Positions 584 to 22,194 of a stretch of DNA of 32,000 nucleotides are shown piece after piece. The notes under the pieces are model-generated. The model made no database searches, was not told the origin of the DNA, and was given only the letters and a program-made list of their open reading frames with translations. The stretch comes from Opitutales bacterium (GTDB lineage Bacteria > Verrucomicrobiota > Verrucomicrobiia > Opitutales > PNEW01): contig CBDCNV010000002.1 of assembly GCA_965219535.1 (NCBI GenBank), positions 1,530,001-1,562,000 of the forward strand, given 5' to 3'. Every line of letters starts with the position of its first letter. The stretch's first letter is position 1. A program made the translations under genes and the position numbers.

Positions 584-595
584 ATGATCGCATAA

Positions 596-2680: not shown

Positions 2681-2681
2681 A

Positions 2682-2710: not shown

Positions 2711-2876
2711 TGGGGAGTATAAAAGGGTTCGGGGTGGAAGATGTCGAGCTACGCTCTCGGTACAGGGTTCAGGAAAATTACAATTGCAGATTGTGGATAG
2801 GAAGATGTTAGACTTCGACCTTTGTACGGATTGCGGATTTATACTAACGAAATAAACTATCTTTATTCTGAAGACT

Positions 2877-2896
2877 GAACCCCGAACCCCGAACCC
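2877..2896 (+). repeat. (GAACCCC)x3 heptamer array next to the stop of minus-strand gene 2910..3983
   Basis: gaacccc gaacccc gaaccc. The inverted partner aaaagggttcggggtgg at 2721-2737 is interleaved with the 2682/2811 pair. Confidence 0.8.
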
Positions 2897-2909
2897 TTTT
2901 TACTAACAA

Positions 2910-3983: not shown

Positions 3984-3990
3984 GGAATTA

Positions 3991-4006
3991 GTCAAAAAGT
4001 CAAAAG
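3991..4006 (+). repeat. K array: 2 units, start-proximal to minus-strand gene 2910..3983
   Basis: gtcaaaaa gtcaaaag, 7 nt from the ATG at 3983. Confidence 0.9.
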
Positions 4007-4048: not shown

Positions 4049-4158
4049 AGAGATAGCCACAAAAGGCACAAAAAGCACAAGATTAAATTTTGAGAGAAAA
4101 GAAGAACTATAAGGTGGAACGCGCTGTCCCCAGCGCGTTTGTTTATATTATTAAAAAA

Positions 4159-4893
4159 GGGTCATGCCTAGAACAGAGGGTATCTTAAGCACATATTAAG
4201 GATGTTACGATGGAGGTTTTGATGACGATGGTTAAAGCGATATTCAGTTTCTTTGAGGTGCAGTTGGAAGGTCCTACGAGAAAGACCTTTGAACTTAGCC
4301 AATCGAAGTTTAGCAAAAGCCCAAAAAGATTCAATCCCGTTAATGTGGGAGTGTCCCTGGGCAAACTCGTTGTCGTTGTGATTGACACGGTAATGCTTCT
4401 TATAGCCCAGATCCACGAGGCCGTTGTAAGCACGCCACCCGTCAGAATAAAGCACACTGTCAAAAGTAACTCTCCCTTGGATCACCGCATGCAGAGCGGC
4501 TCTGGAGACGTTGCGTACAACCTGGGTATAGACTTTCCCATTACGCTTGAGCAACCCGAAGACGGGCACTTTCTTGAATGCACCCCGACCTCTTTGCCCT
4601 GGAATTCTTTTGCCTCCAAAGTAGGACTCATCCATTTCCACCGACCCCCTAAAAGGCGAGGCCTGCGCACATTGCTGCAACAAACGCTCCCGCAACAAGC
4701 GCAAATAACGGTTGACCGTGTTACGATTCAATCCTGTCAATTGGGTTATCTTCAACGCTTCCATATCCAAGCTAAAACACTTTACTAACTGCCGAAATTT
4801 GGCCTCAGAAATTTTTGAACGATGTACATACTTATTTCTCATTTGTCTAGAATAGCTTACACATCTGATATGTGTCTATTCTAGGCATGACCC
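4159..4893 (-). mobile_element. IS1595-family insertion sequence (about 735 bp)
   Basis: Perfect 15-bp terminal inverted repeats GGGTCATGCCTAGAA (4159-4173 and reverse complement 4879-4893; 18/19 when extended). Single DDE transposase ORF. Flanking 8-mers TTAAAAAA (4151-4158) and TTAAAAAT (4894-4901) look like an 8-bp target duplication, which is expected for this family. Confidence 0.8.
4168..4842 (-). CDS. IS1595-family (ISXO2-like DDE) transposase
   Basis: 224 aa. N-terminal HTH-like region (LTGLNRNTVNRYLRLLR), ESYFGGKR, SDGWRAYNGL and INGIESFWAFAK blocks characteristic of DDE_Tnp_IS1595. Confidence 0.85.
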   Translation of the reverse strand: MRNKYVHRSKISEAKFRQLVKCFSLDMEALKITQLTGLNRNTVNRYLRLLRERLLQQCAQASPFRGSVEMDESYFGGKRIPGQRGRGAFKKVPVFGLLKRNGKVYTQVVRNVSRAALHAVIQGRVTFDSVLYSDGWRAYNGLVDLGYKKHYRVNHNDNEFAQGHSHINGIESFWAFAKLRLAKFKGLSRRTFQLHLKETEYRFNHRHQNLHRNILNMCLRYPLF

Positions 4894-4957
4894 TTAAAAA
4901 TATATACAAACGCGCTAGGGACAGCCCGCTCCACCTACCACGCATTAGCGTCTTCAA

Positions 4958-4990
4958 CGTTTTGACTTTTTGACCTTTTGACCTTTTGAC
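4958..4990 (-). repeat. K' array: 4 units, start-proximal to 4999..8289
   Basis: cgttttgac tttttgac cttttgac cttttgac. Ends 8 nt before the GTG at 4999. Confidence 0.95.
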
Positions 4991-4998: not shown

Positions 4999-7900
4999 GT
5001 GAAACGTGCTTTCAAATATTGTGGGCTTTTTCTGATAGCGAGTTGTTTCTATTTGGGGTTTTTATATTTGTGGAGTGATATCTTAATGCCGGAATTGGAG
5101 GAAGAACCCATCCACTACAGTCAGGAGAAGCTCGATTACACGGAAAAATTAAGAGATGTCAGTTTTACGGAGGATGATGAATATAAAGTACAGCGGGATG
5201 TAGATTATAGTAAGGGTGAATCCGGCAGATGGTTTCCCAAGGGTGAATCACCGATACTGGCTGAATTGGTAGAGGAGGGTAAGCTGCCACCGGTGGCTGA
5301 GCGCGTGGGACCCGAGCCGGTAGTAATTGAGGGTGTAGACGGTATTGGCAACTACGGTGGCACCTGGTTTCGGGTATCAGGATCGCAGACCAATATTGAC
5401 CTCATGTATAATTTCACTTCCGGCTCGATGCTCGTTCGCTGGTCCCCTCTCGGTTACCCAATCGTGCCGCATGCGGCTAAAGGATGGGAGTCCAGCCCAG
5501 ACTTAAAGGAATGGACCGTTTATTTACGCAAAGGGATGAAATGGTCCGACGGTCATCCCTTCACCGCTGACGATATTCTCTACTGGTACTACCAGGAAGT
5601 ATTGCTTGATTATTATCAGGATGCTGCAGCGCGGGCAAACTGGATGATCGTGGGTGGCGAGTGGGGAGAAATGGTCAAAATAGATGATTACACGATAAAA
5701 TTTGTTTTTCCTAAACCCTACGGTGTGTTTCTCGAACACCTGGCTCGTGCCTGGTATTTTTGTTCGCCTCGTCATTACATGGAGAAGTATCACCCGGATC
5801 TCGGCGACGACGAACTAATCGAAAAAACGATGGCAGCAAGGAGGTTACCATCGCGCAAAAGTTTATACGTATTACTAGAGAAGTGGTTCAACCCTGAGCA
5901 CCCGCGGATCTGGCCCTGGGTCTACCGTAATTACAAAGCCAATCCTCCCCAGGTATTTGTGCGCAATCCCTACTACTGGGCGGTTGATGTTGCAGGTAAC
6001 CAGCTGCCCTATTTAGACAGAATACATTGGGATATCAAAAATCAAAGGTTTGTTCCCATTGCATCCGCTAGCGGAGCAGTCACCTTTACCATTCATGTCA
6101 TGGATTTGTATTACACCCTGCTCATGGCAGAACGAGAAGCAGGAGAATACGAAGTCTATCACTGGTTTCCCGCAACACGCTCGCGCTATCTGATTAATCC
6201 GAACTTTAACTACTATGTCGATCCCGATAAACCGGAGACGCAAATGAAGCACGATCTCATCAATGACAAGCGCTTCCGCCAGGCACTTTCCCTCGCCATC
6301 AATCGACGACAAATAATCAAAAATGTGTATAATGGGGTGGGAGAGCCCGCGCAGTTATCGCCGGGCAGGGAATCTTACTTTCACCATGAAAAACTTCATA
6401 AGAGCTATACAGAGTATGCGCCTGACAAAGCAAATGCCTTACTCGATGAGCTCGGTCTCACCCGGAGGGATTCCGAAGGATACCGCAGGTTCAAGGACGG
6501 CACGCGCATGGTTTGGTATTATACCATTCCCCAGGGAGAAGACGAGGGACCGACGGAACTTATCCTAGAGGACTGGGGCCACGTGGGTGTACGTTTTATT
6601 CGACGACAGCCCTCACTTGCCCTTTTTAATTTAGAACTGAGAGCACGTACCTTGGAATTCTCCGATTGGCCTGGAGAGAGTGAATATAGTCCCATCTTGG
6701 GAGCTGACCGATTTGCCGGATTAACGTCTCTCCAAGCTTACGGTTATTGGAATTGGTATATGAGAGGGGGGCTTTACGGAGACCGAAGAGCCACCGAGTT
6801 AGGCGGCATCGAACCACCGATGAATCACCCTCTACGGCGATCAATGGAACTGATTGATGAATCTTACGGCGCAACCAACCGCGAAGAGCAGCGGGTCATT
6901 TTTAATAAGTTATTCGATATCGCAGCTGAAAATCTCTGGTCAATTAATATTACCACCCCTCCACCGCATCCGGTCGTCGTAAAGAACGGGTTAAAAAACG
7001 TACCCCGCAATTCATTTTATGGCGCGCGTTTTTGTCCACCGGCTCCGACCGGTATGGAAACCTACTTTTTCGAAGCGCCCTATGATTCACCGGGTGCGAT
7101 TGCCCAGATTAAAAATGAGATGATCGAAATCACCCCCGCCCCTTACGGCACCGAGGAAGACGATCTTGAATCCACCAGTTATGACCGTTTAGCCTGGCTT
7201 ATAAAAAACTTATTTTTAGGTATCGCCGTTTGCGGTATAATTATGATCGGGATACGACATCCGTATATTGGAAGACGAATGCTGATTATGATTCCGACGC
7301 TTCTCATTGTCTCGGTGATATCTTTTACGATCATCCAGCTGCCACCGGGAAGTTATATCGAAACAAGAATACTTGAGCTGCAGTTAAGAGGCGGGCCATT
7401 AGCTATCGATGAAGCGAAAGAACTGCGCGAAATTTTTCATCTCGATAAGCCCTTCCCCGAACGTTATTCCCGCTGGCTCGGGCTTAACTGGTTTACTTCA
7501 TTTGATCGAAAAGACCAGGGTTTACTCCAGGGCTACATGGGATTGTCGATGGAAAACCAGAGCACGGTCAATGAAATGGTGGGCGATCGCATCCTTCTCA
7601 CATTTCTCATATCATTAGGGACCATTCTTTTTACCTGGATGATAGCGCTGCCTATTGGCATCTATTCCGCGGTACGCCAGTACACCCTGGGCGACTATTT
7701 ATTCACCCTGATAGGATTCATTGGGATGAGCGTTCCCAGTTTTCTCCTCGCCTTGATCCTGCTTTACTGGAGCCGCGAGTACCTGGGGATAAACATTTCG
7801 GGGCTGTTTTCACCTGATTATGCGGCCCAGCCTGAATGGACGCGAGGTAAGATTCTCGACATGCTGAAACATATCTGGGTGCCGATAGTTGTTCTGGGGG

Positions 7901-8289
7901 TCACGGGGACGGCAAGTATGATCCGCATCATGCGCGGGAACTTACTTGACGAGTTAAAAAAACCCTACGTCATTACGGCGATGGCAAAAGGGGTGCGCCC
8001 CTTTAAACTGTTGATAAAATATCCCGTGCGTTTGGCGATTAATCCCTTTATCTCGGCGATTGGCGTGATCTTTCCTCAATTGGTTTCAGGCGGAGCGATT
8101 GTCGCCATGGTTCTCAGCCTGCCCACTGTTGGGCCGTTATTATTAGATTCGCTATTGCTTGAAGATATGTACGTAGCGGGGTCGATGCTCATGGTGCTCA
8201 GCTTGCTCGGAATACTAGGCACTTTGGTCAGTGATCTGTTACTTATGTGGCTCGATCCGAGGATTAGGATGGAAGGCGGAGTTCGGTAA
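4999..8289 (+). CDS. fusion protein: family-5 (peptide/oligosaccharide/nickel type) ABC solute-binding domain + DppB/OppB-like ABC permease domain
   Basis: 1096-aa ORF with GTG start. It has an N-terminal membrane anchor and a ~700-aa SBP_bac_5-like region. An extra TM helix (LAWLIKNLFLGIAVCGIIMIGI, ~7189-7255) follows, then a typical permease start (RRMLIMIPTLLIVSVISFTIIQLPPG) and the EAA-loop region (ITAMAKGVRPFKLLIKY). Confidence 0.8.
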   Translation: MKRAFKYCGLFLIASCFYLGFLYLWSDILMPELEEEPIHYSQEKLDYTEKLRDVSFTEDDEYKVQRDVDYSKGESGRWFPKGESPILAELVEEGKLPPVAERVGPEPVVIEGVDGIGNYGGTWFRVSGSQTNIDLMYNFTSGSMLVRWSPLGYPIVPHAAKGWESSPDLKEWTVYLRKGMKWSDGHPFTADDILYWYYQEVLLDYYQDAAARANWMIVGGEWGEMVKIDDYTIKFVFPKPYGVFLEHLARAWYFCSPRHYMEKYHPDLGDDELIEKTMAARRLPSRKSLYVLLEKWFNPEHPRIWPWVYRNYKANPPQVFVRNPYYWAVDVAGNQLPYLDRIHWDIKNQRFVPIASASGAVTFTIHVMDLYYTLLMAEREAGEYEVYHWFPATRSRYLINPNFNYYVDPDKPETQMKHDLINDKRFRQALSLAINRRQIIKNVYNGVGEPAQLSPGRESYFHHEKLHKSYTEYAPDKANALLDELGLTRRDSEGYRRFKDGTRMVWYYTIPQGEDEGPTELILEDWGHVGVRFIRRQPSLALFNLELRARTLEFSDWPGESEYSPILGADRFAGLTSLQAYGYWNWYMRGGLYGDRRATELGGIEPPMNHPLRRSMELIDESYGATNREEQRVIFNKLFDIAAENLWSINITTPPPHPVVVKNGLKNVPRNSFYGARFCPPAPTGMETYFFEAPYDSPGAIAQIKNEMIEITPAPYGTEEDDLESTSYDRLAWLIKNLFLGIAVCGIIMIGIRHPYIGRRMLIMIPTLLIVSVISFTIIQLPPGSYIETRILELQLRGGPLAIDEAKELREIFHLDKPFPERYSRWLGLNWFTSFDRKDQGLLQGYMGLSMENQSTVNEMVGDRILLTFLISLGTILFTWMIALPIGIYSAVRQYTLGDYLFTLIGFIGMSVPSFLLALILLYWSREYLGINISGLFSPDYAAQPEWTRGKILDMLKHIWVPIVVLGVTGTASMIRIMRGNLLDELKKPYVITAMAKGVRPFKLLIKYPVRLAINPFISAIGVIFPQLVSGGAIVAMVLSLPTVGPLLLDSLLLEDMYVAGSMLMVLSLLGILGTLVSDLLLMWLDPRIRMEGGVR

Positions 8290-8306
8290 ACCGAACTCCA
8301 CCTTCC
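8271..8306 (+). other. hairpin with the TAA stop codon of 4999..8289 in its 4-nt loop
   Basis: ggaagg c ggagttcgg TAAA ccgaactcc a ccttcc: 15 bp of stem with one mismatch. The 5' arm encodes the last codons (EGGVR). The K array follows immediately. Confidence 0.7.
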
Positions 8307-8340
8307 GTCAAAAAGTCAAAAGGTCAAAAGGTCAAAAGGG
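8307..8340 (+). repeat. K array: 4 units, stop-proximal to 4999..8289
   Basis: gtcaaaaa gtcaaaag gtcaaaag gtcaaaag gg. Confidence 0.95.
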
Positions 8341-8409
8341 AAATGCGAATACGCGAACATGGGACTATGCGGAGAAGCGTATAAGCGGAGCATATTCATC
8401 CTATCCTTA

Positions 8410-8446
8410 TTGTCATTGCGAGGAGCAACGCGACGCGGCAATCCAG
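8410..8446 (+). repeat. half copy of the TTGTCATTGCGA...GGCAATCCAG element
   Basis: ttgtcattgcgaggagcaacgcgacgcggcaatccag. The same sequence occurs at 10569-10605, and an inverted pair at 25157-25257. Confidence 0.8.
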
Positions 8447-8493
8447 AAAGTTTTAATACTAAATCCGAGAACGGTGAATCCCGAACCATCAAC

Positions 8494-8521
8494 TTAACAC
8501 CTAAAACATAAAACCTAATAC
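8494..8521 (+). repeat. T array: 4 heptamers of YTAAMAC type
   Basis: ttaacac ctaaaac ataaaac ctaatac. Directly abuts the stop hairpin of 8542..9393. Confidence 0.8.
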
Positions 8522-8550
8522 ATCGCGTGAGGCGATTCGCCTCAAGCGAT
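8522..8550 (-). terminator. stem-loop overlapping the stop codon of 8542..9393; candidate intrinsic terminator
   Basis: atcgcgtgaggcg att cgcctcaagcgat: 13-bp stem with 1 mismatch. On the minus strand it contains ...ATC GCT TGA and is followed by a U-rich T-array transcript. Confidence 0.5.
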
Positions 8551-9393
8551 AACGGCTTCTTCGCCGAGGTGTTCGCGGATCCAGGATCGGAGGGGGACAT
8601 CTTCATCCTGTGGTGAAGTATAGCCAAAATTACCGGTGGGGGACGCACCAAATAATTGCTTACGAATGGGGTCGAGTTGATCCCAGTATTTATCGACCGT
8701 AATATCATCGCGGGGACGAATCCAGCGATAGCCATACCCATAGAATAAGGTTCTTCTCGGTTGGTTCCAATAATTGGCGCTCGAAGAGTGCCAGAGACGC
8801 CGATCAAAAAAGACAGCTGATCCAGCGGAAACTAAAACGGGTACGCCTTCCTCTAAATCAGTGCTTCGATCGTCATTCGGGAGGTTGATGTTTTTCCTGA
8901 GATGACTGCCCGGAATTACATATAAATTCCCGCGGTTGGGTTCACTGCAATCGGTGAGAAAGTAACCGATCTTGAAGGAGATGCGTGGTGGGGGGTCGGA
9001 TTCGATCTCTTTATTTATACGATCGCTGTCCTGATGCCACCCAAACTTTTTATCCCCCTTGTTTTCAGCCGTTTCGCACGGTGTCATAACGAAATGGTTA
9101 TGGTATAACTGAATATTCCAGCCCAGGATTCCCCAGACTTTTGGGAAGGTGCGGTACCAGTCGACAAGTTCGATATAAGCTTTATCTTTACCGATGAAAT
9201 CCATGAACAAAGACCTGTCGCCAGGCGCTGTACCTTTTTTTACACGGTGCGCGCTATCGAGACGATCGGTGAGCTCAATTAATTTCTCGATTTGGTCGGT
9301 ATCGATTACATTCTCGACAATGAAATACCCATCCTGTTCAAAAGCCAGGCGCTCAGCTTCAGTCAAACAGTAGTCTAAGCATTTGGTATCCAT
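8542..9393 (-). CDS. phytanoyl-CoA dioxygenase family protein (tandem copy 1 of 3)
   Basis: 283 aa. EQDGYFIVENV, WHQDSD (HxD), IPGSH, FFDRRLWHSSSAN motifs. Confidence 0.85.
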   Translation of the reverse strand: MDTKCLDYCLTEAERLAFEQDGYFIVENVIDTDQIEKLIELTDRLDSAHRVKKGTAPGDRSLFMDFIGKDKAYIELVDWYRTFPKVWGILGWNIQLYHNHFVMTPCETAENKGDKKFGWHQDSDRINKEIESDPPPRISFKIGYFLTDCSEPNRGNLYVIPGSHLRKNINLPNDDRSTDLEEGVPVLVSAGSAVFFDRRLWHSSSANYWNQPRRTLFYGYGYRWIRPRDDITVDKYWDQLDPIRKQLFGASPTGNFGYTSPQDEDVPLRSWIREHLGEEAVIA

Positions 9394-9405
9394 CTGCGAT
9401 GGATA

Positions 9406-9435
9406 GTCAAAATGTCAAAAGGTCAAAAAGTCAAG
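9406..9435 (+). repeat. K array: ~4 units, start-proximal to minus-strand gene 8542..9393
   Basis: gtcaaaat gtcaaaag gtcaaaaa gtcaag, 12 nt from the ATG at 9393. Confidence 0.95.
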
Positions 9436-9546
9436 AGCGCTAAAGCGCGTATACGCGAATATGCGATAATGCGGGTATGCGTAAATGCGGAGCATGTTCT
9501 GGAGTAAAGCGCTGGCGCGCGTTTTAGGTATTAGGTGACTTTTTAC

Positions 9547-9574
9547 TTAACACTTAACACCTAAAACTTAACAC
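9547..9574 (+). repeat. T array: 4 heptamers
   Basis: ttaacac ttaacac ctaaaac ttaacac. An inverted partial partner, gttttaggtattaggtg, lies at 9521-9537. Confidence 0.85.
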
Positions 9575-9603
9575 ATCGCTTGAGGCAATTTACCTCAAGC
9601 GAT
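9575..9603 (-). terminator. stem-loop overlapping the stop codon of 9595..10446
   Basis: atcgcttgagg caattta cctcaagcgat: perfect 11-bp stem. The TGA (minus strand) lies in the 5' arm. Confidence 0.5.
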
Positions 9604-10446
9604 AACCGCTTCTTCGCCGAGGTGTTCGCGGATCCAGGAGCGGAGGGGGACATCTTCATCTTTGGGGCTGGAATAGCCTCCACCTTCTGTTGCAGAACCG
9701 AATAACTGCTGACGAATCGGGTCCATTTCGGTGAAATCAACGGTCATATTATCGCGTGGTCGTATCCACCGGTAGCTATAGCCAAAAAATAAAACTTTTC
9801 GAGCATGTTCCCAGTAGTTCGCACTTGCCGAATGCCAAATGCGCCGATCGAAATAAACGGCTGAACCCGGAGGGACCAGAACAGGAATACTTCCTTCGAT
9901 TTCAATTTTTCGATCGTCATTGGGGAATTCGATATCTTTCTTCAGATGACTGCCGGGGATGAGATGAAAATTACCACGGCCCGGTTCGCTGCAATCGCTG
10001 AGAAAATAGCCGACCTTTAGAGAAAAACGGGGTTGTGGAAAAACGTTATCTATCTCTATGCACATACGTCCGCTATCTTGATGCCAGCCTAAAACCTTGA
10101 CTTGATTATCTTGTGATTCACGTGGGTAGGTGACATTGAGATGGGAATGATATAACTGGATATTCCAACCGAGTATTCCGAAGACTTTTGGAAAGGTGCG
10201 ATACCAGTCAACGAGGTCAATAAAGACTTTATCTTTACCGACAAAGTCACGAATAAAGAGGTTATTTCCATCGTTTATTAAATACCCTTCTTTTCCATGA
10301 TATTTGGCATCGATGCGATCGGTGGCTTCAATTAATTTTTCGACATGGTCTGGATCGAGCGCATTTTCGACAATAAAATACCCGTCTTGTTCAAAGGCTT
10401 TGCGCTCAGCCTCGGTTAAGCAGTGATCTAAGCTTTTTTTATCCAT
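9595..10446 (-). CDS. phytanoyl-CoA dioxygenase family protein (tandem copy 2 of 3)
   Basis: 283 aa, collinear with copies 1 and 3. WHQDSG, IPGSH, YFDRRIWHSASAN. Confidence 0.85.
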   Translation of the reverse strand: MDKKSLDHCLTEAERKAFEQDGYFIVENALDPDHVEKLIEATDRIDAKYHGKEGYLINDGNNLFIRDFVGKDKVFIDLVDWYRTFPKVFGILGWNIQLYHSHLNVTYPRESQDNQVKVLGWHQDSGRMCIEIDNVFPQPRFSLKVGYFLSDCSEPGRGNFHLIPGSHLKKDIEFPNDDRKIEIEGSIPVLVPPGSAVYFDRRIWHSASANYWEHARKVLFFGYSYRWIRPRDNMTVDFTEMDPIRQQLFGSATEGGGYSSPKDEDVPLRSWIREHLGEEAVIA

Positions 10447-10455
10447 CGATGGATA

Positions 10456-10488
10456 GTCAAAAGGTCAAAATGTCAAAAGGTCAAAAGG
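10456..10488 (+). repeat. K array: 4 units, start-proximal to minus-strand gene 9595..10446
   Basis: gtcaaaag gtcaaaat gtcaaaag gtcaaaag g, 9 nt from the ATG at 10446. Confidence 0.95.
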
Positions 10489-10568
10489 AAAGAGCGCTGG
10501 CGCGCGTATACGCGAATAAGCGATAATGCGGATACGCGTAAATGTGGAGCATATTCATCCCATTCTTA

Positions 10569-10605
10569 TTGTCATTGCGAGGAGCAACGCGACGCGGCAA
10601 TCCAG
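10569..10605 (+). repeat. half copy of the TTGTCATTGCGA...GGCAATCCAG element
   Basis: Identical to 8410-8446. Embedded in a ~114-nt block (10546-10659) that is ~96% identical to 8387-8500. Confidence 0.8.
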
Positions 10606-10652
10606 AAAGTTTTAATACTAAATCCGCGAACGGTGAACCCCGAACCATCAAC

Positions 10653-10680
10653 CTAACACCTAACACTTAAAACTTAACAC
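10653..10680 (+). repeat. T array: 4 heptamers
   Basis: ctaacac ctaacac ttaaaac ttaacac. Confidence 0.85.
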
Positions 10681-10709
10681 ATCGCTTGAGGCAATTTGCC
10701 TCAAGCGAT
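10681..10709 (-). terminator. stem-loop overlapping the stop codon of 10701..11555
   Basis: atcgcttgaggcaa t ttgcctcaagcgat: near-perfect 29-nt palindrome. The TGA (minus strand) lies in the 5' arm. Confidence 0.5.
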
Positions 10710-11555
10710 AATCGCTTCTTCACCGATGTGTTCACGGATCCAGGTGCGGAGGGGAACATCTTCATCTTTTGGGCTGGTATAGCCGCGTCCGCCGGTTACC
10801 GAAGCACCATACAACTGCTGGCGGATCGGGTCCATGCCGGTAAAATCAACGGTCATATTATCCCGCGGTCGTATCCACCGATAGCTATAACCATAAAATA
10901 AAACTTTGCGTGAATGTTCCCAGTAGTTCGCGCTTGCCGAATGCCAGATACGCCGGTCGAAATAAACGGCTGACCCCGGGGGTACCAGAACAGGAATACC
11001 TTCTTCAATTTCAATGCTTCGATCGTCATTGGGAAACTCAATATTTTTTTTCAAATGGCTGCCGGGGATAAGGTGGAAATTACCACGGCCCGGTTCGCTG
11101 CAATCACTCAAAAAGTACCCGACCTTAAGAGAAAAACGGGGTTGTGGAAAAACGTTATCTATCTCTTTACACATGCGATCGCTGTCCTGGTGCCAGCCTA
11201 AAAATTTGTCCTCTTTGTCTTGGGACTCACGCGTGTAGGTGACATTGAGATGGGAGTGATATAACTGAATGTTCCAACCGAGTATGCCGAATACTTTGGG
11301 AAAGGTGCGGTACCAGTCAACGAGGTCTATGTAGACTTTATCTTTACCGACAAAGTCATCAACAAAGAGGAACCCCCGCTCGGTTCTTACATAGCCTTCT
11401 TTTTTACTGTATTCGGCGTCGACGCGGTCTGTTGCTTCAATTAATTTTTCGACATGATCTGGATCGAGCGCGTTTTCGACAATAAAATATCCATCTTGCT
11501 CGAAGGCCTGACGCTCGGCCTCGGTTAAGCAGTGATCTAGGCTTTTAATATCCAT
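10701..11555 (-). CDS. phytanoyl-CoA dioxygenase family protein (tandem copy 3 of 3)
   Basis: 284 aa. The same motifs as copies 1 and 2. Confidence 0.85.
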   Translation of the reverse strand: MDIKSLDHCLTEAERQAFEQDGYFIVENALDPDHVEKLIEATDRVDAEYSKKEGYVRTERGFLFVDDFVGKDKVYIDLVDWYRTFPKVFGILGWNIQLYHSHLNVTYTRESQDKEDKFLGWHQDSDRMCKEIDNVFPQPRFSLKVGYFLSDCSEPGRGNFHLIPGSHLKKNIEFPNDDRSIEIEEGIPVLVPPGSAVYFDRRIWHSASANYWEHSRKVLFYGYSYRWIRPRDNMTVDFTGMDPIRQQLYGASVTGGRGYTSPKDEDVPLRTWIREHIGEEAIIA

Positions 11556-11567
11556 CGAAGATGGATA

Positions 11568-11597
11568 GTCAAAAAGTCAAAAGGTCAAAAAGTCAAT
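11568..11597 (+). repeat. K array: ~4 units, start-proximal to minus-strand gene 10701..11555
   Basis: gtcaaaaa gtcaaaag gtcaaaaa gtcaat, 12 nt from the ATG at 11555. Confidence 0.95.
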
Positions 11598-11600
11598 AGC

Positions 11601-11736
11601 GCTGGCGCGCGTATACGCGAATAAGCGGAAATGCGGAAATGCGGAAATGCGGAAATGTGGAAATGCGTGTATGCGGAAATGCGTGTATGCGGAAATGCGG
11701 TTAAGCGTAAATGCGCTGACGCGCGGATGTGCATTT
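11601..11736 (+). repeat. M array: 17 consecutive phased 8-mers of GCGNNNNN type (core GCGGAAAT)
   Basis: gctggcgc gcgtatac gcgaataa gcggaaat x4 gtggaaat gcgtgtat gcggaaat gcgtgtat gcggaaat gcggttaa gcgtaaat gcgctgac gcgcggat gtgcattt. Confidence 0.9.
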
Positions 11737-11764
11737 CAATAGGTCAATATGGATTATCGCGGAA

Positions 11765-11797
11765 CATTTTGACATTATGATATTTTGACCTTTTGAC
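11765..11797 (-). repeat. K' array: 4 units (one degenerate), start-proximal to 11807..12562
   Basis: cattttgac attatgat attttgac cttttgac. Ends 9 nt before the ATG at 11807. Confidence 0.9.
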
Positions 11798-11806
11798 TAA
11801 AGTCCA

Positions 11807-12562
11807 ATGAAAGTTATTGATTACAGAAGCAGTTTTACGATCAATACATCGGCCGACGAGGGTGGTGAGAATAACACCTGCCGAACTCAAGTTCTGGCGA
11901 AGTGTGCACTGAGAAATGATGACAGCGGTCAGTCGGGGGAATACTTCCTGGGGAAGGATTGTATAGGTGAATACATGTATAAGGAGAGAGGCATTGCACA
12001 GGAGCCGACAGCAAATGTAGGTGTAATATTTGGTGAAAAGGAATCCTCGTTATTTAAAAAATTTGCCAACCATGAAAGTGATGTCATTCAGACGGGTGCA
12101 CAGGGCGTTCGCAAAAAAACCTTTGCGGGAACCTTAGGCTACTCAAAAGAATTAAATTTCAAACTCAGCGAGGTGGAAGCGCGCCCATTAAAGTCAAGTG
12201 AAGAGATAATTCGCGCGACCCTGGATTGTGAACCGATGGTCGGGCGAACGATGTTAAACGATGAGGAGCGGAATTTGCATGCGGTCCTTGAATATCCACT
12301 CTACTACATGAACGTTCATCCACCCGAGGGACGTTTCCAAGTGGATGTCGGCCCGATACTCTATCCTGATTTTGACGTAAAGGGTGAGTCCCCGATCGAG
12401 TGTCTTAAGTTGGCTTATGTAATGTATAATCAATTGAATGCCGTCGAGTTTGCGATTCGCGTACCTACACTTGTCGTGGAAGGGCAATCCGCAGAAACGC
12501 TGCACTATTCAAAGGTCATCAAGGTAGCGGCGCAGTGCGAGTTGTTCAGTTTGGCTGTTTGA
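11807..12562 (+). CDS. hypothetical protein (no family recognised)
   Basis: 251-aa ORF. Bracketed by a K' array upstream and a K array downstream, like the recognisable genes. I cannot place it in a family. Confidence 0.6.
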   Translation: MKVIDYRSSFTINTSADEGGENNTCRTQVLAKCALRNDDSGQSGEYFLGKDCIGEYMYKERGIAQEPTANVGVIFGEKESSLFKKFANHESDVIQTGAQGVRKKTFAGTLGYSKELNFKLSEVEARPLKSSEEIIRATLDCEPMVGRTMLNDEERNLHAVLEYPLYYMNVHPPEGRFQVDVGPILYPDFDVKGESPIECLKLAYVMYNQLNAVEFAIRVPTLVVEGQSAETLHYSKVIKVAAQCELFSLAV

Positions 12563-12567
12563 GAGGA

Positions 12568-12591
12568 GTCAAAAGGTCAAAAGGTCAAAAA
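12568..12591 (+). repeat. K array: 3 units, stop-proximal to 11807..12562
   Basis: gtcaaaag gtcaaaag gtcaaaaa. Starts 5 nt after the TGA. Confidence 0.95.
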
Positions 12592-12673
12592 GGGGGGAGG
12601 AGGCTGGTAGACTGCTATTAATACTTGTTTACATTTTTTAGGTAGCACCGCTTGTACGCAAAAAACGCATATC

Positions 12674-12705
12674 CTTTTGACATTTTGACCTTTTGACATT
12701 TTGAC
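12674..12705 (-). repeat. K' array: 4 units, start-proximal to 12713..13189
   Basis: cttttgac attttgac cttttgac attttgac. Ends 7 nt before the ATG at 12713. Confidence 0.95.
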
Positions 12706-12712
12706 TGACCAC

Positions 12713-13189
12713 ATGAGTGGTCATAAACATTACTGGTTAATAAAATCGGACCCGGAGACGTTATCGTTTGATGAGGTCAAGGCGCGGCCGAATAGTATTA
12801 TTGACTGGAACGGGGTTCGCAATTACCAAGCGCGTAATTTTATGCGTGACGAGTTGAAAAAGGGAGACCGGGTTCTCTTCTATCACTCGCAGTGTAAAGA
12901 TACGGGAGTTGTCGGTTTGGCTGAAGTGGTGCGCGAATCTTATCCCGATCATACGGCCTGGGATAAGAAACATCGCTATTACGACCCGAAAACCGACAAG
13001 GATAATCCAATCTGGTACATGGTTGATTTAAAATGGAAGAAAGCCTTTAAGCAGACCGTGACATTGGCCGAGATGAAAGCGACGACCGCGCTGAAATCTA
13101 TGCGCGTCGTACAACGAGGTCAGCGATTGTCGGTACAGCCCGTGACAAAGAAAGATTTTGATCGGGTGTGTAAGATGGGGGGAGTTTAG
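12713..13189 (+). CDS. EVE domain (PUA-like, DUF55/THYN1-like) protein
   Basis: The track starts at a TTG (12701) inside the repeat. I prefer the in-frame ATG at 12713 (MSGHKHYWLIKSDPE...). WNGVRNYQARNFMRDELKKGDRVLFYHS and MVDLKW blocks are typical of EVE domains. Confidence 0.8.
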   Translation: MSGHKHYWLIKSDPETLSFDEVKARPNSIIDWNGVRNYQARNFMRDELKKGDRVLFYHSQCKDTGVVGLAEVVRESYPDHTAWDKKHRYYDPKTDKDNPIWYMVDLKWKKAFKQTVTLAEMKATTALKSMRVVQRGQRLSVQPVTKKDFDRVCKMGGV

Positions 13190-13220
13190 TCAAAAGGTCA
13201 AAAGGTCAAAAAGTCAAAAG
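13189..13220 (+). repeat. K array: 4 units, overlapping the last base of the TAG stop of 12713..13189
   Basis: gtcaaaag gtcaaaag gtcaaaaa gtcaaaag. Confidence 0.95.
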
Positions 13221-13242
13221 GTGTGGATTGAAGAAGCCTAAT

Positions 13243-13263
13243 GTCGAAGGTCGAAGGTCGAAT
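13243..13263 (+). repeat. (GTCGAAG)x3 heptamer array
   Basis: gtcgaag gtcgaag gtcgaat. Followed by phased 8-mers: gcgaaaat gcgtgaat gtggtgat gggggaat. Confidence 0.85.
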
Positions 13264-13304
13264 GCGAAAATGCGTGAATGTGGTGATGGGGGAATGCAGT
13301 AGCA

Positions 13305-13339
13305 GTGTTATGTTTTAGGTGTTAAGTTTTAGGTTTCGG
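13305..13339 (-). repeat. T' array (reverse complement of the T heptamers), 5 units
   Basis: gtgttat gttttag gtgttaa gttttag gtttcgg. Confidence 0.8.
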
Positions 13340-13371
13340 ATAATGGTGGATGAACTGAGGGGAGAGTAACT

Positions 13372-14487
13372 ATGAGAAAATTAGTGGGCTATCTTGAAGG
13401 GGTGTTGATTGCGGCGATGGGTGTGTTGTCGGGGAACTTTGGGCATGCATCGGCGATGACACAATCGACGCCGGTATTTGAAATGCAGGAGTTGTACGAA
13501 GGGATTCGGGGACCGAACATCGTGGTCGCTGCGGACGGATCAGTCCTGGCTTTTGCAAGATGGGGAGAGTTATTGCGTCGCAGTGAGGATAAAGGAAAAA
13601 CATGGAGTGCTGTTAAAGAGGTCGGAGTAGACTCGAGGGGCAGCGCAATCGTTGACGATAATCGTGGTCATGTCATGGTTGTTGATGGCAGAGGGGGCCA
13701 CTTGTGGAGAAGTCTCGATCATGGAAAAACGTGGAAAAGAGAAGAGGTCGAGTTCAAGCCCAACGGGAACGGTCACGGGATTCCCGGTAAGGTTCCAGTA
13801 GATACTGGCGCATCGGAGTCGGGGATCACGTTGCAATATGGAAAGCATAAAGGAAGACTGTTAATGCCCGGTAGGATTCAACCGCCCCATGGCACAAATG
13901 ATCAGGAGTGGTGGATGTACAATTACAACACCGCGATCTACAGCGACGATGGAGGCAAAACCTGGCAGACGGGAAGTCCGGTCCAGAGTGGAACGGGCGA
14001 GGGCACATTGGCTGAACTGTCGAACGGCAATATCTATTACAATTCCCGCTCTCATATGTCAGTCGATCACCGACGGCAGATTGCCTGGAGCTATGATGGG
14101 GGGCATATGTGGACGGACTGGCGTGTATCCACTCAACTTTTTGAGATCGGCCAACCGCACTATTTCAAGTATGGGAAAAAACCAAGTTACGGGTGCGCAG
14201 CGGGTCTGGTGCGCATGCCTTTGGAAATGACCGGTGGCAAGGACGTGCTATTGTACAGTGCGCCCGACGACCCGGGTGGTTCCCGTGTGCGCATGACAGT
14301 GTGGGCGAGTTTCGATCAGGGTGAAACATGGCCGGTAAAACGCCTCGTTTACGAAGGGCATAGTGCCTACTCTTCACTGTCAGCAGGTAGAGACGGTAAT
14401 GTTTACCTGCTATTCGAGTGGGGAAAGGATAAACTCTACGAAAGTATATACGTGGCAAAATTCAATCTCGACTGGCTTAAAGAGTGA
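13372..14487 (+). CDS. BNR-repeat exo-alpha-sialidase-like (GH33-like) secreted protein, tandem copy 1 of 3
   Basis: 371 aa. It has a signal-peptide-like N-terminus and Asp-boxes RSEDKGKTWS, RSLDHGKTWK, YSDDGGKTWQ, SYDGGHMWTD and SFDQGETWP. There are Arg/Glu/Tyr positions consistent with a sialidase fold (IRGPN, EGTLAEL..YYNSRS, AYSSL). SD-like gaggggagag lies upstream. Confidence 0.75.
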   Translation: MRKLVGYLEGVLIAAMGVLSGNFGHASAMTQSTPVFEMQELYEGIRGPNIVVAADGSVLAFARWGELLRRSEDKGKTWSAVKEVGVDSRGSAIVDDNRGHVMVVDGRGGHLWRSLDHGKTWKREEVEFKPNGNGHGIPGKVPVDTGASESGITLQYGKHKGRLLMPGRIQPPHGTNDQEWWMYNYNTAIYSDDGGKTWQTGSPVQSGTGEGTLAELSNGNIYYNSRSHMSVDHRRQIAWSYDGGHMWTDWRVSTQLFEIGQPHYFKYGKKPSYGCAAGLVRMPLEMTGGKDVLLYSAPDDPGGSRVRMTVWASFDQGETWPVKRLVYEGHSAYSSLSAGRDGNVYLLFEWGKDKLYESIYVAKFNLDWLKE

Positions 14488-14617
14488 ACGAGTGATTAAT
14501 GGAAGATTTAAAAACAGTGTTAATTTTTAGGTTTTACATTTGTTGAAGATCAAGAATGTGATTAAGAGGATAAAGGTGAATAGGTATAGGCGTGAAAACG
14601 ATATTAGGAAAAGGATC

Positions 14618-15751
14618 ATGATAAAAGCAGAAGTTATTTTCAGACGGGTAATTATTGCAGCAGTTTTGGTATGGATAGGAAATTCTAGTTATGCCGCGGC
14701 TAATAAACAATCATCGGCCGAGTTTGAGATGCAGGAGCTATTTAAATTGATGCGCGGACCAAACATCGTGGTAGCTGTCGATGGATCAGTTCTGGCTTTC
14801 GGAGATTGGGGCCAGATGCTACGTCGCAGTGAAGACGGGGGAAAAACCTGGAGCAAAGCACAAAGAATCCTGGAGGAGGTGGTAGATGATACCCGGGTCA
14901 GTGCGATTGTCGACGAAAACAATGGCCATGTCATGGTCGTTGATGGTATTAGTGGTAACTTGTGGAGAAGTCTCGATCACGGGAAAAGCTGGGAGAGAGA
15001 GAAAATCATATTCAGGTCCAATGCCCTTGGTCACGGAATTCCCGGTAAGATTTCGACAGAAACGGGCGGCTCTGAGTCGGGAATTACGCTGCGTTATGGA
15101 AAGCATAAAGGCAGACTGGTGATGCCTGTACGGGTCAATCCTCCCAGCAATAGCAACGACCAGGAGTCGTGGATGTACTTTTACAATACGGCTATCTACA
15201 GTGACAATGGTGGCAGATCCTGGAAGACGGCAGGACCGGTGCAGAATGGGACCGGTGAGGGTACTTTAGCTGAAATGTCGGATGGCGCCATTTACTACAA
15301 TTCACGTTCCCATATGGCAATCGATCACCGGAGGCAGATCGCCTGGAGCTATGATGGTGGACACATGTGGACAGACTGGAAGTCATCTAAAGATCTCTTG
15401 GAAGTCGGCGAACCACACTTCTTCCGGTATGGGAAAAAACCGAGCTACGGATGTGCAGCGGGTCTGGTACGCCTGCCATTAGAATTGACCGATGGCAAGG
15501 ATGTGCTCCTATATAGCGCTCCCGACAATCCAGGTGGGATACGCAAACGCATGACAGTATGGGCGAGCTTTGACCGGGGCGAGACCTGGCCGGTGAAGCG
15601 ACTGGTTTACGAAGGGCTCAGTTCCTATTCTTCGCTCACGGCAGACAGTGATGGTAATATATATCTGCTCTTCGAGTGGGGAAAGGATTATCTATACGAA
15701 AGTATATATATGGCTAAATTTAACCTCGAATGGGTGATGGAGAATCAGTGA
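14618..15751 (+). CDS. BNR-repeat sialidase-like protein, tandem copy 2 of 3
   Basis: The track ORF starts at 14540. I prefer the ATG at 14618 (MIKAEVIFRRVIIAAVLV..., aligns with the copy 1 signal peptide, aggaaaagga upstream). Confidence 0.75.
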   Translation: MIKAEVIFRRVIIAAVLVWIGNSSYAAANKQSSAEFEMQELFKLMRGPNIVVAVDGSVLAFGDWGQMLRRSEDGGKTWSKAQRILEEVVDDTRVSAIVDENNGHVMVVDGISGNLWRSLDHGKSWEREKIIFRSNALGHGIPGKISTETGGSESGITLRYGKHKGRLVMPVRVNPPSNSNDQESWMYFYNTAIYSDNGGRSWKTAGPVQNGTGEGTLAEMSDGAIYYNSRSHMAIDHRRQIAWSYDGGHMWTDWKSSKDLLEVGEPHFFRYGKKPSYGCAAGLVRLPLELTDGKDVLLYSAPDNPGGIRKRMTVWASFDRGETWPVKRLVYEGLSSYSSLTADSDGNIYLLFEWGKDYLYESIYMAKFNLEWVMENQ

Positions 15752-15864
15752 ACGGTGATAAGTGAACCGTGTCAGGCGTTAAGTATTAGGTTTTAGTTTT
15801 GTTGAAGGTGAGGAATGTGAGTATCAAAATAAGGATGGACGGGTATTGGCGTGTAAACGATAGT

Positions 15865-17013
15865 ATGAAAATGATCATGACAAGAGCAGAAGTTTTATTA
15901 ATACGGGTAATGATTGTAGCCACTTATTTGGTGGTAGGTAACTTTTGTATGGCAGCAGCCGAGACAAATTCGGTACCAGTCTTCGAAATGCAGGAACTGT
16001 TTAAGGGGACACGCATTTTGAACGTTGTGGTGGCCACCGATGAATCTGTTTTGGCTTTTACTAATGACGGCCGGTTATTGCGTCGCAGTGAAGACGCGGG
16101 CAAATCCTGGAGTCCAATTCAAGAGGTGGGGCATGACGCGGGAGGAAGCGCGGTCGTCGACGAATACAGCGGTCATATCATGGTTGTTAGAAGTGGGAAT
16201 GGTTACCTTTGGAGAAGCAGCGATCACGGGATAACTTGGCAGAGAGAGGAGATTGACGTCATACCCAATGCCTTCGGCCACGGGGTTCCCGGCGGTGTAA
16301 GCGCGTCTACGCACGGATCGGAATCAGGAATAACATTGAATTACGGAAAGCACGAGGGAAGATTGATCATGCCGGCGCGGATCACTGGGCCCAAGGGTTC
16401 GAATGAACAGGAGTGGTGGCCCTACCATTACAATATTGCTATTTACAGTGACAATGGCGGAAAGGTCTGGCGGGTGAGTAGACCGATGCAAAGTGGAACG
16501 GGTGAGGGAACCCTGGCTGAACTATCAAATGGTAGCATCTATTATAATTCCCGTTCGCACCTGGCAGTAGACCATCGAAGACAGATTGCCTGGAGCTATG
16601 ACGGCGGAGAAATGTGGACAGACTGGAGTTCATCCGATGAACTTTTCGAGGTCGGTGAACCCTTTTATTTCAAGTACGGGACTAAACCCAGTTACGGTTG
16701 CAGCGCGGGCCTAGTGCGTTTGCCCTTGAATGTGACTAAAGGGAAGGATGTGCTGATATACAGTTCACCCGATAATCCGGGAAAAGATCGTTATCGTATG
16801 ACTGTGTGGGCAAGCTTCGATGGGGGCAAAACCTGGCCGGTGAAACGTTTGGTCTACGCAGGACCGAGTGCCTATTCCTCGCTTGCCGCAGACATAAAAG
16901 GAAATATCTATCTCCTGTTTGAGTGGGGTAAGGATAAACTTTACGAAAGTGTCTACGTGGCGAAATTTAATCTCGACTGGCTGGCTGAGGGATCAGTAAT
17001 CAGTGAACAGTGA
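15865..17013 (+). CDS. BNR-repeat sialidase-like protein, tandem copy 3 of 3
   Basis: The track ORF starts at 15799. In-frame ATGs at 15865, 15871 and 15877 are all possible; 15877 is homologous to the start of copy 2. Confidence 0.7.
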   Translation: MKMIMTRAEVLLIRVMIVATYLVVGNFCMAAAETNSVPVFEMQELFKGTRILNVVVATDESVLAFTNDGRLLRRSEDAGKSWSPIQEVGHDAGGSAVVDEYSGHIMVVRSGNGYLWRSSDHGITWQREEIDVIPNAFGHGVPGGVSASTHGSESGITLNYGKHEGRLIMPARITGPKGSNEQEWWPYHYNIAIYSDNGGKVWRVSRPMQSGTGEGTLAELSNGSIYYNSRSHLAVDHRRQIAWSYDGGEMWTDWSSSDELFEVGEPFYFKYGTKPSYGCSAGLVRLPLNVTKGKDVLIYSSPDNPGKDRYRMTVWASFDGGKTWPVKRLVYAGPSAYSSLAADIKGNIYLLFEWGKDKLYESVYVAKFNLDWLAEGSVISEQ

Positions 17014-17140
17014 ACAGTGAAAAATACCGGAAAGTCAGAAAACCAGAAAGCCAGACAATCGAAAACCGAAGTACCTAAAATCTGAATATTAAATTGAGAA
17101 TAAAAATGTCAAAATCCGCATTGCCGCTTTATCGCATTTC

Positions 17141-17158
17141 CCTTTTTGATATTTTGAC
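17141..17158 (-). repeat. K' array: 2 units, start-proximal to 17177..18244, preceded by reverse-oriented M units
   Basis: cctttttgat attttgac. Upstream, tccgcattgccgctttatcgcatttcc is the reverse complement of M-type units. Confidence 0.85.
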
Positions 17159-17176
17159 TAAAAACAGGTTTTTAAA

Positions 17177-20559: not shown

Positions 20560-20732
20560 TAAAGTTATGCGTAAATGTGATAAAGCGTAGATGCGTGGAT
20601 GTGATAAGGCGATTAAGAATTAGGTTAAAGGTTGAAGGAAATATAATTGTTGTTCTGCACGATCACATGGATCGTAGAGATGGACTGACTAAAATTATAT
20701 AGGCGCGATAAGCGCTGAGATAGGAATAGAAG

Positions 20733-22190: not shown

Positions 22191-22194
22191 TTTG

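Follow-up and report, generated by a model that had tools for sequence, protein, structure and literature searches.

Complementary arrays of phased octamers at gene boundaries in an Opitutales genome

Octamer arrays lie at gene starts and stops

We analyzed 32,000 nucleotides of DNA from an Opitutales bacterium (contig CBDCNV010000002.1, positions 1,530,001 to 1,562,000; hereafter the window) and found that its intergenic spacers carry short arrays of a phased octamer, TTTTGACN, in a fixed orientation to the neighboring genes. An array that reads GTCAAAA is called K, and its reverse complement, which reads TTTTGAC, is called K'. K and K' are a real, conserved gene-boundary signal with a putative function. 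The core element, four TTTTGACN units, precedes the start of roughly half of the genes in the window. We tentatively favor the interpretation that the phased octamers are a lineage-specific cis-element system at the gene boundaries of a marine Opitutales clade.

The initial annotation, made from the sequence alone, expected a period of 7-8 nt that is confined to intergenic DNA, and within the window we observe this peak when intergenic DNA is compared with coding DNA and with shuffled sequence. In the 5.1 kb of intergenic DNA, autocorrelation at lag 8 is 0.374 as compared to 0.267 in shuffled sequence (z=21), with further peaks at lag 7 (z=15.5) and lag 16 (z=11.8), while coding DNA has a period of 3 only. 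The best lag is 7 or 8 in 19 of the 23 intergenic regions of at least 80 nt. A three-unit K pattern with at most one mismatch has 31 matches in the window and none in 100 shuffles. Arrays of period 7, 8, 14 or 16, as called by Tandem Repeats Finder, make up 25% of intergenic and 0.3% of coding bases; the description of intergenic DNA as almost wholly short tandem units thus fits some spacers, such as 11556-11806, but not all of them.

The focal spacer, 11556-11806, lies between a minus-strand PhyH gene (10701-11555) and a plus-strand gene (Table 1). In 8-nt frames, its K array (11567-11598) is AGTCAAAA AGTCAAAA GGTCAAAA AGTCAATA; on the minus strand it reads as four TTTTGACN units that end 12 nt ahead of the PhyH ATG. 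It is followed up to 11734 by 17 octamers of a second type, called M, in the order GCGCTGGC GCGCGTAT ACGCGAAT AAGCGGAA ATGCGGAA x3 ATGTGGAA ATGCGTGT ATGCGGAA and then ATGCGTGT ATGCGGAA ATGCGGTT AAGCGTAA ATGCGCTG ACGCGCGG ATGTGCAT. The M array contains four identical ATGCGGAA/GCGGAAAT units in succession and one duplicated 16-mer. Together, K and M at 11567-11734 are 21 successive octamers in a single unbroken phase. The initial annotation had counted the same 4 K and 17 M units, and the 1-nt phase slip that it described is the result of reading the units as GCGNNNNN. The K' array that it placed after the M array is present, at 11764-11797. Its other modules were also all found, although four of the sites given as K followed by M have no K: at 20566, 26470, 28598 and 29233, M directly follows the stop codon.

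Size, polarity and spacing of the arrays

We took a census of arrays in the window and in 21 tiles of the related genome OY829953 (200 kb). Twelve arrays have two units, 21 have three and 41 have four, and none of the 74 has more than four, so that K, dispersed and never longer than 32 nt, is not an open-ended microsatellite. The 7-nt core is nearly invariant and the eighth base is free, being mostly T or C in the TTTTGACN reading. When both arrays are found in one spacer, their order is 5'-K...K'-3' in 17 cases and K'...K in one. K and K' are inverted partners with arms of 24-32 bp; where a spacer has both, they close it as an AU-rich inverted repeat of ~30 bp.

The orientation of the arrays follows the genes. 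TTTTGAC points toward a start codon in 26 cases and the reverse is found once, and GTCAAAA follows a stop codon in 27 cases, with four in reverse. Arrays without a partner in their spacer also have the expected polarity (29 vs 4). The distances are narrow as well. K' ends 7-12 nt from the start codon in 28 of 38 cases, and a second class at 24-26 nt has a small A5-stem-T5 hairpin, as in module 23103-23188, which is followed by such a hairpin (23189-23211) and an ATG at 23214. K begins -1 to +7 nt from the stop codon in 16 of 29 cases, and TAG or TGA is sometimes shared between the two. Upstream of a gene for a substrate-binding protein (SBP)-permease, the gap between a four-unit K' array and the start is exactly 8 nt, with variable sequence, in five orthologues or paralogues (window 4999, L031, L109, L104 and L084; L numbers denote matching sequences), of which L084 is only ~73% identical at the nucleotide level. 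The inverted pairing of K and K', their fixed polarity and distance to stop and start codons, the absence of Shine-Dalgarno sequences and the inversion or replacement of spacer centers (both below) had been missed by the initial annotation.

The arrays are embedded in further phased sequence. Upstream of K', M' units (nnnnnCGC) share an 8-nt lattice with K' (nnnnGACn) over 6-10 blocks. Purines are in excess on the sense strand after stop codons, by 0.25 on average over 50 nt, and this purine-rich sequence consists of K, M, AGTGAAC, GTCGAAG or CAGAAAAC units. Two starts are preceded by degenerate K'-like lattices (28735-28775 and 29350-29391), for example ATTCGACT ATCGACC TTTGACT TTAGACT CCTTATATAA-ATG. 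Judging by these lattices, what is conserved may be a GAC every 8 nt and not the complete TTTTGAC unit.

Hairpins of the form A5-stem-loop-T5 (for example AAAAACCTGCCTAGCAGGTTTTT) lie between K' and the ATG at 23189-23211, 1747-1760 and 17159-17176, and also in L015, L109 and L110. The genes that follow them are unrelated (HpcH aldolase, Gfo/Idh/MocA oxidoreductase and fatty-acid desaturase) and the stems differ by locus. These hairpins have the shape of a bidirectional terminator, yet they end 2-3 nt before the start codon.

Arrays recur in separate assemblies while spacer centers turn over

K arrays are genuine sequence that recurs across separate assemblies. The sequence of 701-20774 is found without a difference (100% identity) in an ENA metagenome contig (ERZ25067264 ctg827606), and that of 11567-12596 in Logan contig ERR13605531_1858464. 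In a pattern scan with one genome per species, many K arrays were found in the 4.49-Mb chromosome of the Opitutales metagenome-assembled genome (MAG) OY829953.1 and also in CBDANS01, another Opitutales MAG. The window and OY829953 are syntenic, with flanking genes 91-97% identical, and the JGI metagenome contigs Ga0315339, Ga0115002 and Ga0209089 carry K arrays together with orthologues at ~88% amino-acid identity. The initial annotation had stated that an assembly or scaffolding artefact would overturn its claim. The matching ENA contig is of low coverage (labelled 5x), as an artefact might be, but the same sequence was recovered identically in the ENA and the Logan contig, and arrays occupy orthologous positions in OY829953 and in three JGI contigs of other projects. 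Chance low-complexity sequence is at odds with the 31 matches to the K pattern where none is expected, and neither explanation accounts for arrays that respect gene boundaries. We regard artefact and chance together as extremely improbable.

When we compared the window with its relatives, we found that K cores and their spacing persist while centers are replaced and M copy number changes. In the orthologous focal spacer, the K array that adjoins the PhyH start is kept in all three JGI relatives, and the four-unit K' array at the start of the 251-aa gene is kept in L110 and L111 and is a single unit in L109. There are 17 M units in the window, ~6 in L109 and ~2-3 in L110/L111, and the remaining center is unrelated; the proposal that unit counts vary between orthologous spacers was therefore correct for M. 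Whole spacers differ from OY829953 despite the high identity of the flanking genes. Spacer 2681-2909, which has GTCRAAG and GAACCCC units in the window, corresponds to a clean K4...K'3 module in OY829953, and spacer 8290-8541 has another center there, plus a K' arm. Among non-paralogous modules, centers are 30-298 nt long and unrelated in sequence except for short M stretches.

One center is inverted in place. In OY829953, the center of module 594-728 is identical to the reverse complement of the window sequence at 68 of 71 positions, as compared to 37 of 71 in direct orientation, and the arms are unmoved. This is the sole case among ~6 comparable modules, and exact-protein look-ups found no additional assemblies that contain this module. 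Sequence is also shared between loci: unrelated genes have a ~100-bp block (hairpin element, M', K') in common upstream, and in L109 the upstream regions of PhyH and the fatty-acid desaturase are 79% identical over 97 bp. Gene content at these spacers differs as well, with three PhyH and three BNR-sialidase genes in the window and two and one, respectively, in L109. A 4.1-kb segment that ends at module 22194-22346 is absent from L109.

We also found matches to the three-unit K pattern in Planctomycetota, Bacteroidota, Poribacteria and others, and we rejected a cross-phylum K system, as these arrays are open-ended and have little or no gene polarity. Arrays of TTTTGACN type reach 17 copies in Planctomycetota and 14 in Bacteroidota matches; most likely, a similar unit is simply repeated in tandem in these genomes. 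GTCAAAAN arrays of up to 17 copies, mixed with GTCGAAAN, GGTGAAT and similar units, are present in unrelated phyla and extend to genomes with a GC content of 65%. Such mixed-unit arrays were seen in Planctomycetota of 63-66% GC (L012, L033, L036, L041 and L076), with a weak post-stop tendency (13 vs 5), and also in Bacteroidales/Prevotella (L006, L009, L069 and L072) and Alcanivoracaceae (L060). Viral contigs were rejected as carriers of K, since their ten matches have an unrelated context, no limit of four units and the opposite polarity.

Genes with an upstream K' array have no Shine-Dalgarno motif

In the window, 13-15 of the 30 genes are K'-led, meaning that they have at least two K' units upstream, and none of these has a Shine-Dalgarno motif. 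Among the other genes, four match our purine-rich Shine-Dalgarno test pattern, three of them convincingly (13372, 24349 and 29877). The K'-led genes are a mix of enzymes and transporters. K' is presumably not complementary to the canonical anti-Shine-Dalgarno sequence in the 3' tail of 16S rRNA.

We considered more familiar signals for both arrays. K' was rejected as a sigma-70 promoter with TTGAC as its -35 box, as no -10 hexamer lies at 16-18 bp and such sites are not enriched relative to shuffled sequence: the TTGAC boxes of K' would be 7, 15 or 23 bp from any following TA-rich hexamer, and sigma-70-like sites number 25 and 30 as compared to 21.9 and 29.5 expected. A leaderless mRNA is also inconsistent with the arrays, since a TA-rich hexamer after K' would be 1-7 nt from the ATG. 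The K array is a direct repeat without self-complementarity, and stems form only between K and K', where the predicted dG is -33 to -54 kcal/mol (z -5 to -9). These are not canonical intrinsic terminators: the stems are AU-rich, the loops are 30-298 nt long, and a terminator scan gave no calls at K modules. No Rfam family reached its gathering score anywhere in the window, and at E<=1 the region 11400-13450 had chance-level matches only.

Relation to known repeats

Bacterial intergenic DNA built of tandem units is not as unusual as the initial annotation had stated, since precedents exist in the TAACTGA repeats of Beggiatoaceae (PMC4679880) and in the cyanobacterial heptamers discussed below. 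TAACTGA repeats, the closest precedent of K/K', are direct repeats of 2-6 copies, almost all intergenic, in marine Beggiatoaceae, some cyanobacteria and Bacteroidetes (MacGregor 2015, PMC4679880). They are oriented toward start codons and end a few nucleotides upstream, their genes mostly have no ribosome-binding site and no evident pattern of function, and S1, Csp or CsrA has been proposed to bind them (PMC4679880). K' is likewise intergenic, oriented toward starts and present in 2-4 copies, at genes that share no functional theme and have no Shine-Dalgarno sequence. In contrast to the TAACTGA heptamer, the K unit is an octamer (TTTTGACN) with a free eighth base, K' does not exceed 4 copies, and the distance that it favors from the start is 7-12 nt rather than 1 nt. 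K' also has a complementary array, K, after stops that turns spacers into inverted repeats, M units extend its lattice upstream, and the lineage is Verrucomicrobiota.

The short tandemly repeated repetitive (STRR) heptamers of cyanobacteria, attributed to Mazel and colleagues in 1990, are reportedly intergenic 7-nt tandem arrays of variable copy number, with several families per genome. M (17, ~6, ~2-3 units) and the heptamers AGTGAAC x19.6, GTCGAAG, GAACCCC and YTAAMAC are similarly open-ended and variable in copy number, whereas K arrays are not (0/74 above 4 units) and the dominant unit is 8 nt. To our knowledge, no fixed block size, inverted pairing or placement by starts and stops has been described for STRR arrays.

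Other systems share single properties with K/K'. Repetitive extragenic palindromes (REP) and bacterial interspersed mosaic elements (BIME) of Enterobacteria are abundant, extragenic and often found after stops; they form inverted pairs and mRNA stems, have uniform cores and promote rearrangements. The REP unit is an imperfect palindrome of ~35 bp with a GTAG head. K/K' shares the abundance, post-stop location, inverted pairing, potential stems, rearrangements and uniform cores, but the K array is four tandem octamers without self-complementarity, and K' is fixed relative to start codons. No REP-associated tyrosine transposase (RAYT)-like gene was seen in the window. Invertons are said to be invertible promoters flanked by inverted repeats (Jiang and colleagues, in 2019). 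K/K' modules are likewise intergenic segments between ~30-bp inverted repeats, and one center has opposite orientations in two related genomes (68/71 reverse complement); unlike invertons, the modules have no recognizable promoter in their centers and no invertase in the window, and their arms are a single tandem-octamer sequence throughout the genome. The 8-bp metboxes of MetJ, the omega heptads and the TRAP/HutP triplets repeat a core 2-11 times with a 5-8-nt period and are read by an oligomeric protein. K shares the repeated core, the fixed period and the free spacer bases; those systems, however, are single regulons with a known protein, while K arrays flank about half of the window genes. 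K/K' resembles miniature inverted-repeat transposable elements (MITEs) in having terminal inverted repeats of 24-32 bp.

The literature held no description of K/K' or of intergenic octamers in Opitutales or Verrucomicrobia that we could find, with sequence-string queries swamped by primers. K/K' differs from the known systems in its octamer unit, four-unit maximum, complementary array after stops, inverted-repeat architecture and Verrucomicrobiota lineage.

A possible role in gene expression and its alternatives

The constraints on the arrays are set by start and stop codons and not by promoters, polarity does not depend on a partner, and K' takes the place of the Shine-Dalgarno sequence. Taken together, these data suggest a cis-acting role in expression, most simply at the mRNA level. 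In the mRNA leader, K' would be a landing or regulatory site, independent of a Shine-Dalgarno sequence, for the ribosome or for an oligomeric RNA-binding protein; candidate binders are the OB-fold domains of S1 and ring proteins like TRAP or HutP. K would be the matching 3' trailer, and could either cover K' when transcription reads through or close off the mRNA at its 3' end. M (nnnnnCGC upstream of starts) and the heptamers may be fast-evolving filler on the 7-8-nt lattice that would grow, shrink and be replaced by slippage and by recombination between shared arms, with the arms providing the homology for inversion, spacer replacement and unequal crossing-over.

Several observations weigh against such a role. 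Covariation between the eighth bases of the arms is absent within a spacer (13/40 agree, 36% expected) and across a gene (14/44 agree, 35% expected), and there is therefore no visible selection for pairing of K and K' in a fixed register. The predicted folding of the start-codon region is no different in K'-led and other genes. K-K' modules are also found between convergent genes, where no start codon follows. The tight distances could in part come from insertion into spacers that were tiny ancestrally, and gene conversion rather than selection could keep the core uniform. The array census is biased, as all Opitutales tiles except the window were fetched for having a K array. Finally, action at the RNA level is suggested by spacing and polarity only.

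There are two serious alternatives. K...K' could be the arms of selfish or neutral MITE- or REP-like repeat DNA in short spacers, kept uniform by ectopic gene conversion or mobilization, with M, the YTAAMAC heptamers (T) and other heptamers as STRR-like slippage minisatellites; polarity and spacing would then mirror where insertions are tolerated. We consider this possible but somewhat unlikely. The 17 to 1 order of K and K' is that of terminal inverted repeats, arm length is fixed at 32 bp, variable arm bases do not covary, M copy number is unstable and whole spacers differ between genomes that are 92% identical. One center is inverted in place, as expected of recombination between arms, the M'+K' flank is partly common to unrelated loci, and many genes of the window are tandem paralogues that vary in copy number between relatives. 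However, module centers are unrelated, with no family that has a conserved interior, and no autonomous element with K arms was found in the ~250 kb searched; the sole transposase in the window belongs to an IS1595-family insertion sequence (IS) with other ends. A symmetric target-site duplication is missing: TA is found after the array mostly on the side of the start codon, while the stop-side flanks are GA, TG, CC and TT, and we rejected a MITE with a TA duplication for this one-sidedness. Insertion also accounts poorly for K'-led genes that have no Shine-Dalgarno sequence, for an exact 8-nt gap to the start that is kept over ~27% nucleotide divergence while the gap sequence changes, and for the polarity of unpaired arrays (29 vs 4).

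The arrays could instead act as DNA. A double-stranded-DNA binder that recognizes asymmetric GTCAAAA at 8-bp spacing, in blocks of four that are inverted at spacer edges, might be an omega- or MetJ-like ribbon-helix-helix repressor, a nucleoid protein or a recombinase, and the arrays would be operators, insulators or the inverted repeats of an inverton-like segment. This we judge unlikely, although one factor would explain the complementary arrays, the conserved 7-mer and the free, non-covarying eighth base. At 4 x 8 bp, a block spans 32 bp, or about three helical turns, and tandem 7-8-bp boxes in 2-10 copies are the operator format of MetJ and of pSM19035 omega. Centers are polar, a G-run marking one end and a CGCATTTCC unit the opposite one; both orientations are seen, and one center is inverted between relatives. 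On the other hand, spacing is tied to start and stop codons and not to a recognizable promoter, there is no excess of sigma-70-like promoters, and a -10 box at 16-18 bp from the TTGAC of K' is lacking. No recombinase or ribbon-helix-helix gene lies in the window, and the inversion is one among ~6 comparable modules, known from comparison between genomes.

The initial annotation had offered a repeat-generating process or selection for periodic sites as explanations. The former suits the M arrays and heptamers, given the 17, ~6 and ~2-3 M units, the identical units and the 19.6 copies of AGTGAAC, but not K. The latter suits K/K', with its invariant core, four-unit maximum and position conserved down to ~73% nucleotide identity, a pattern that homogenization would also fit.

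Within the expression role that we favor, a more specific scheme, gene punctuation, seems improbable to us but can be stated in full. Complementary 32-nt arrays would bracket transcription units: in place of the Shine-Dalgarno sequence there would be a leader, (UUUUGACN)4, 7-12 nt ahead of the AUG, a trailer, (NGUCAAAA)4, would begin at the stop codon, and their pairing would control ribosome loading. Pairing across a spacer could provide insulation or translational coupling, and pairing across a gene could form a base-paired closed-loop mRNA in which the stop is placed by the start. The arms would, in addition, be a portable stretch of homology by which intergenic regulatory segments and gene cassettes are inverted, swapped and duplicated.

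If K' substitutes for the Shine-Dalgarno sequence, it would be a defined, portable and sequence-simple signal for studying ribosome recruitment without that sequence, a long-standing question in Bacteroidota, cyanobacteria and many uncultured phyla, and it would be a second, independent case next to the TAACTGA repeats. The inverted arms offer a concrete model of how abundant intergenic repeats may lead to spacer turnover, inversion and tandem gene copy-number change in free-living marine bacteria. For annotation, K arrays could be used to mark true start codons and transcription-unit boundaries in Opitutales MAGs; gene callers placed the HpcH gene starts 10 codons downstream.

Other features of the window

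The repeat features of the window are listed in Table 1.

Table 1. Octamer and heptamer features of the window (a number after K or K' gives the units in the array)
Feature	Position	Strand	Remarks
K4-center-K'4 module	594-728	.	Between stop 559 and start 753; center 71 bp
K4-center-K'2 module	1625-1741	.	Paralogue of 594-728; open reading frame (ORF) 753-1673 runs through the K array
Convergent spacer	2681-2909	.	GTCRAAG units (2681-2711), inverted partner CTTCGACC, GAACCCC x3 (2877-2896)
K array, 2 units	3990-4005	+	Start-proximal to minus-strand gene 2910-3995; left arm of IS1595-interrupted module
K'4 array	4960-4990	-	Ends exactly 8 nt before GTG of SBP-permease gene 4999-8289
K4 array	8307-8339	+	17 nt past stop at 8289, directly after stop-spanning hairpin 8271-8306
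YTAAMAC heptamer array	8491-8523	+	More copies at 9545-9574 and 10651-10680
K4 array, unpaired	9405-9436	+	TTTTGAC toward start of minus-strand PhyH 8542-9393; M units 9436-9492 follow
K4 array, unpaired	10456-10488	+	TTTTGAC toward start of minus-strand PhyH 9595-10446; M units 10489-10550 follow
K array, 4 octamers (NGTCAAAA)	11567-11598	+	TTTTGACN x4 on the minus strand, ending 12 nt ahead of ATG of minus-strand PhyH 10701-11555
M array, 17 degenerate octamers (nnGCGnnn, ATGCGGAA type)	11599-11734	+	In phase with K
K' array, TTTTGACN x4, one unit degenerate	11764-11797	-	Ends 9 nt before ATG of gene 11807-12562
K3-center (84 nt)-K'4 module	12568-12705	.	Between stop 12562 and next start; predicted stem dG -47 kcal/mol, z=-5.2
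K4 array	13189-13222	+	Overlaps stop codon (TAG-TCAAAA)
GTCGAAG x3, M, GTTAAGT-type heptamers	13243-13262, 13264-13300, 13305-13334	+	After K4 array 13189-13222
M' units and K' (2 units)	17118-17158	-	Then TAAAAACAGGTTTTTAAA ahead of ATG 17177
K3-center (96 nt)-K'4 module	22194-22346	.	Right edge of 4.1-kb segment absent from L109
K3-center (30 nt)-K'4 module	23103-23188	.	Predicted dG -35.6 kcal/mol, z=-7.6
K4-center (298 nt)-K'4 module	25005-25366	.	M adjoins K, M' adjoins K'
AGTGAAC heptamer array, 19.6 copies	27475-27613	+	Begins inside stop codon of gene 26703-27479
M array without K	28598-28662	+	Right after stop codon; similar at 20566-20615, 26470-26535 and 29233-29310

Some arrays are associated with other structures. 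At 1591-1676, ORF 753-1673 has no stop ahead of its K array, and read-through adds ~16 residues (…SKSQKVKKSKRKMRL); the OY829953 counterpart of this array is shrunk to GGTCAAAAGGTAAAGAAGG. The hairpin at 8271-8306 is a perfect 16-bp stem over the SBP-permease stop codon (GGAAGGCGGAGTTCGG-TAAA-CCGAACTCCACCTTCC) with K4 immediately after it, and GGAAG...CGAACTCC sequences that resemble it flank K arrays in L031 and L101. A palindrome, TATCCATC-n0-3-GATGGATA, encloses the start codon of each of the three tandem PhyH genes (9387-9405, 10440-10455 and 11549-11567); it directly adjoins the K' array and would sequester the AUG in a small hairpin. Other palindromes dispersed in spacers are CATTGCGAGGAGCAACGCGACGCGGCAATC and GGAGGGACGCACTCCGTTGCGTCC (sites 8414-8443, 10573-10602 and 25161-25194; 30255-30278), and palindromes of the GGAGGGACGCACTCCGTTGCGTCC type are also found in OY829953, L109 and L110, adjoining M' arrays.

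The IS1595/ISXO2-family element occupies 4157-4895, with its transposase on the minus strand at 4168-4842 (Pfam PF12762, E=7e-29) and ends GGCATGACCCTT (GGCATGACCC) at 4157-4168 and 4884-4895. The spacer that holds it is of the K...K' kind, and the insertion point is the AT-rich loop of a palindrome (GGTGGAACGCGCTGTCCC...GGGACAGCCCGCTCCACC); at the orthologous site of OY829953 (L031 803-1090), the palindrome is present and the IS is absent.

At position 20775, just inside gene 20733-21287, the otherwise identical ENA contig (L107 18969-19325) has ~358 bp extra, which hold a 58-aa HTH_29 ORF fragment and a duplicated 104 bp and represent a haplotype or assembly difference. The short-chain dehydrogenase gene 22355-23101, which follows K' 22311-22346, is broken into two ORFs (one to 22582 and one at 22667-23101), and may be a pseudogene or reflect a sequencing error. 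Four families of tandem paralogues are found in the 32 kb, namely HpcH x2 (753-2680), PhyH x3 (8542-11555), BNR-sialidase-like x3 (13372-17013) and PhyH-like x2 (25685-27479), and each copy has its own repeat-built spacer.

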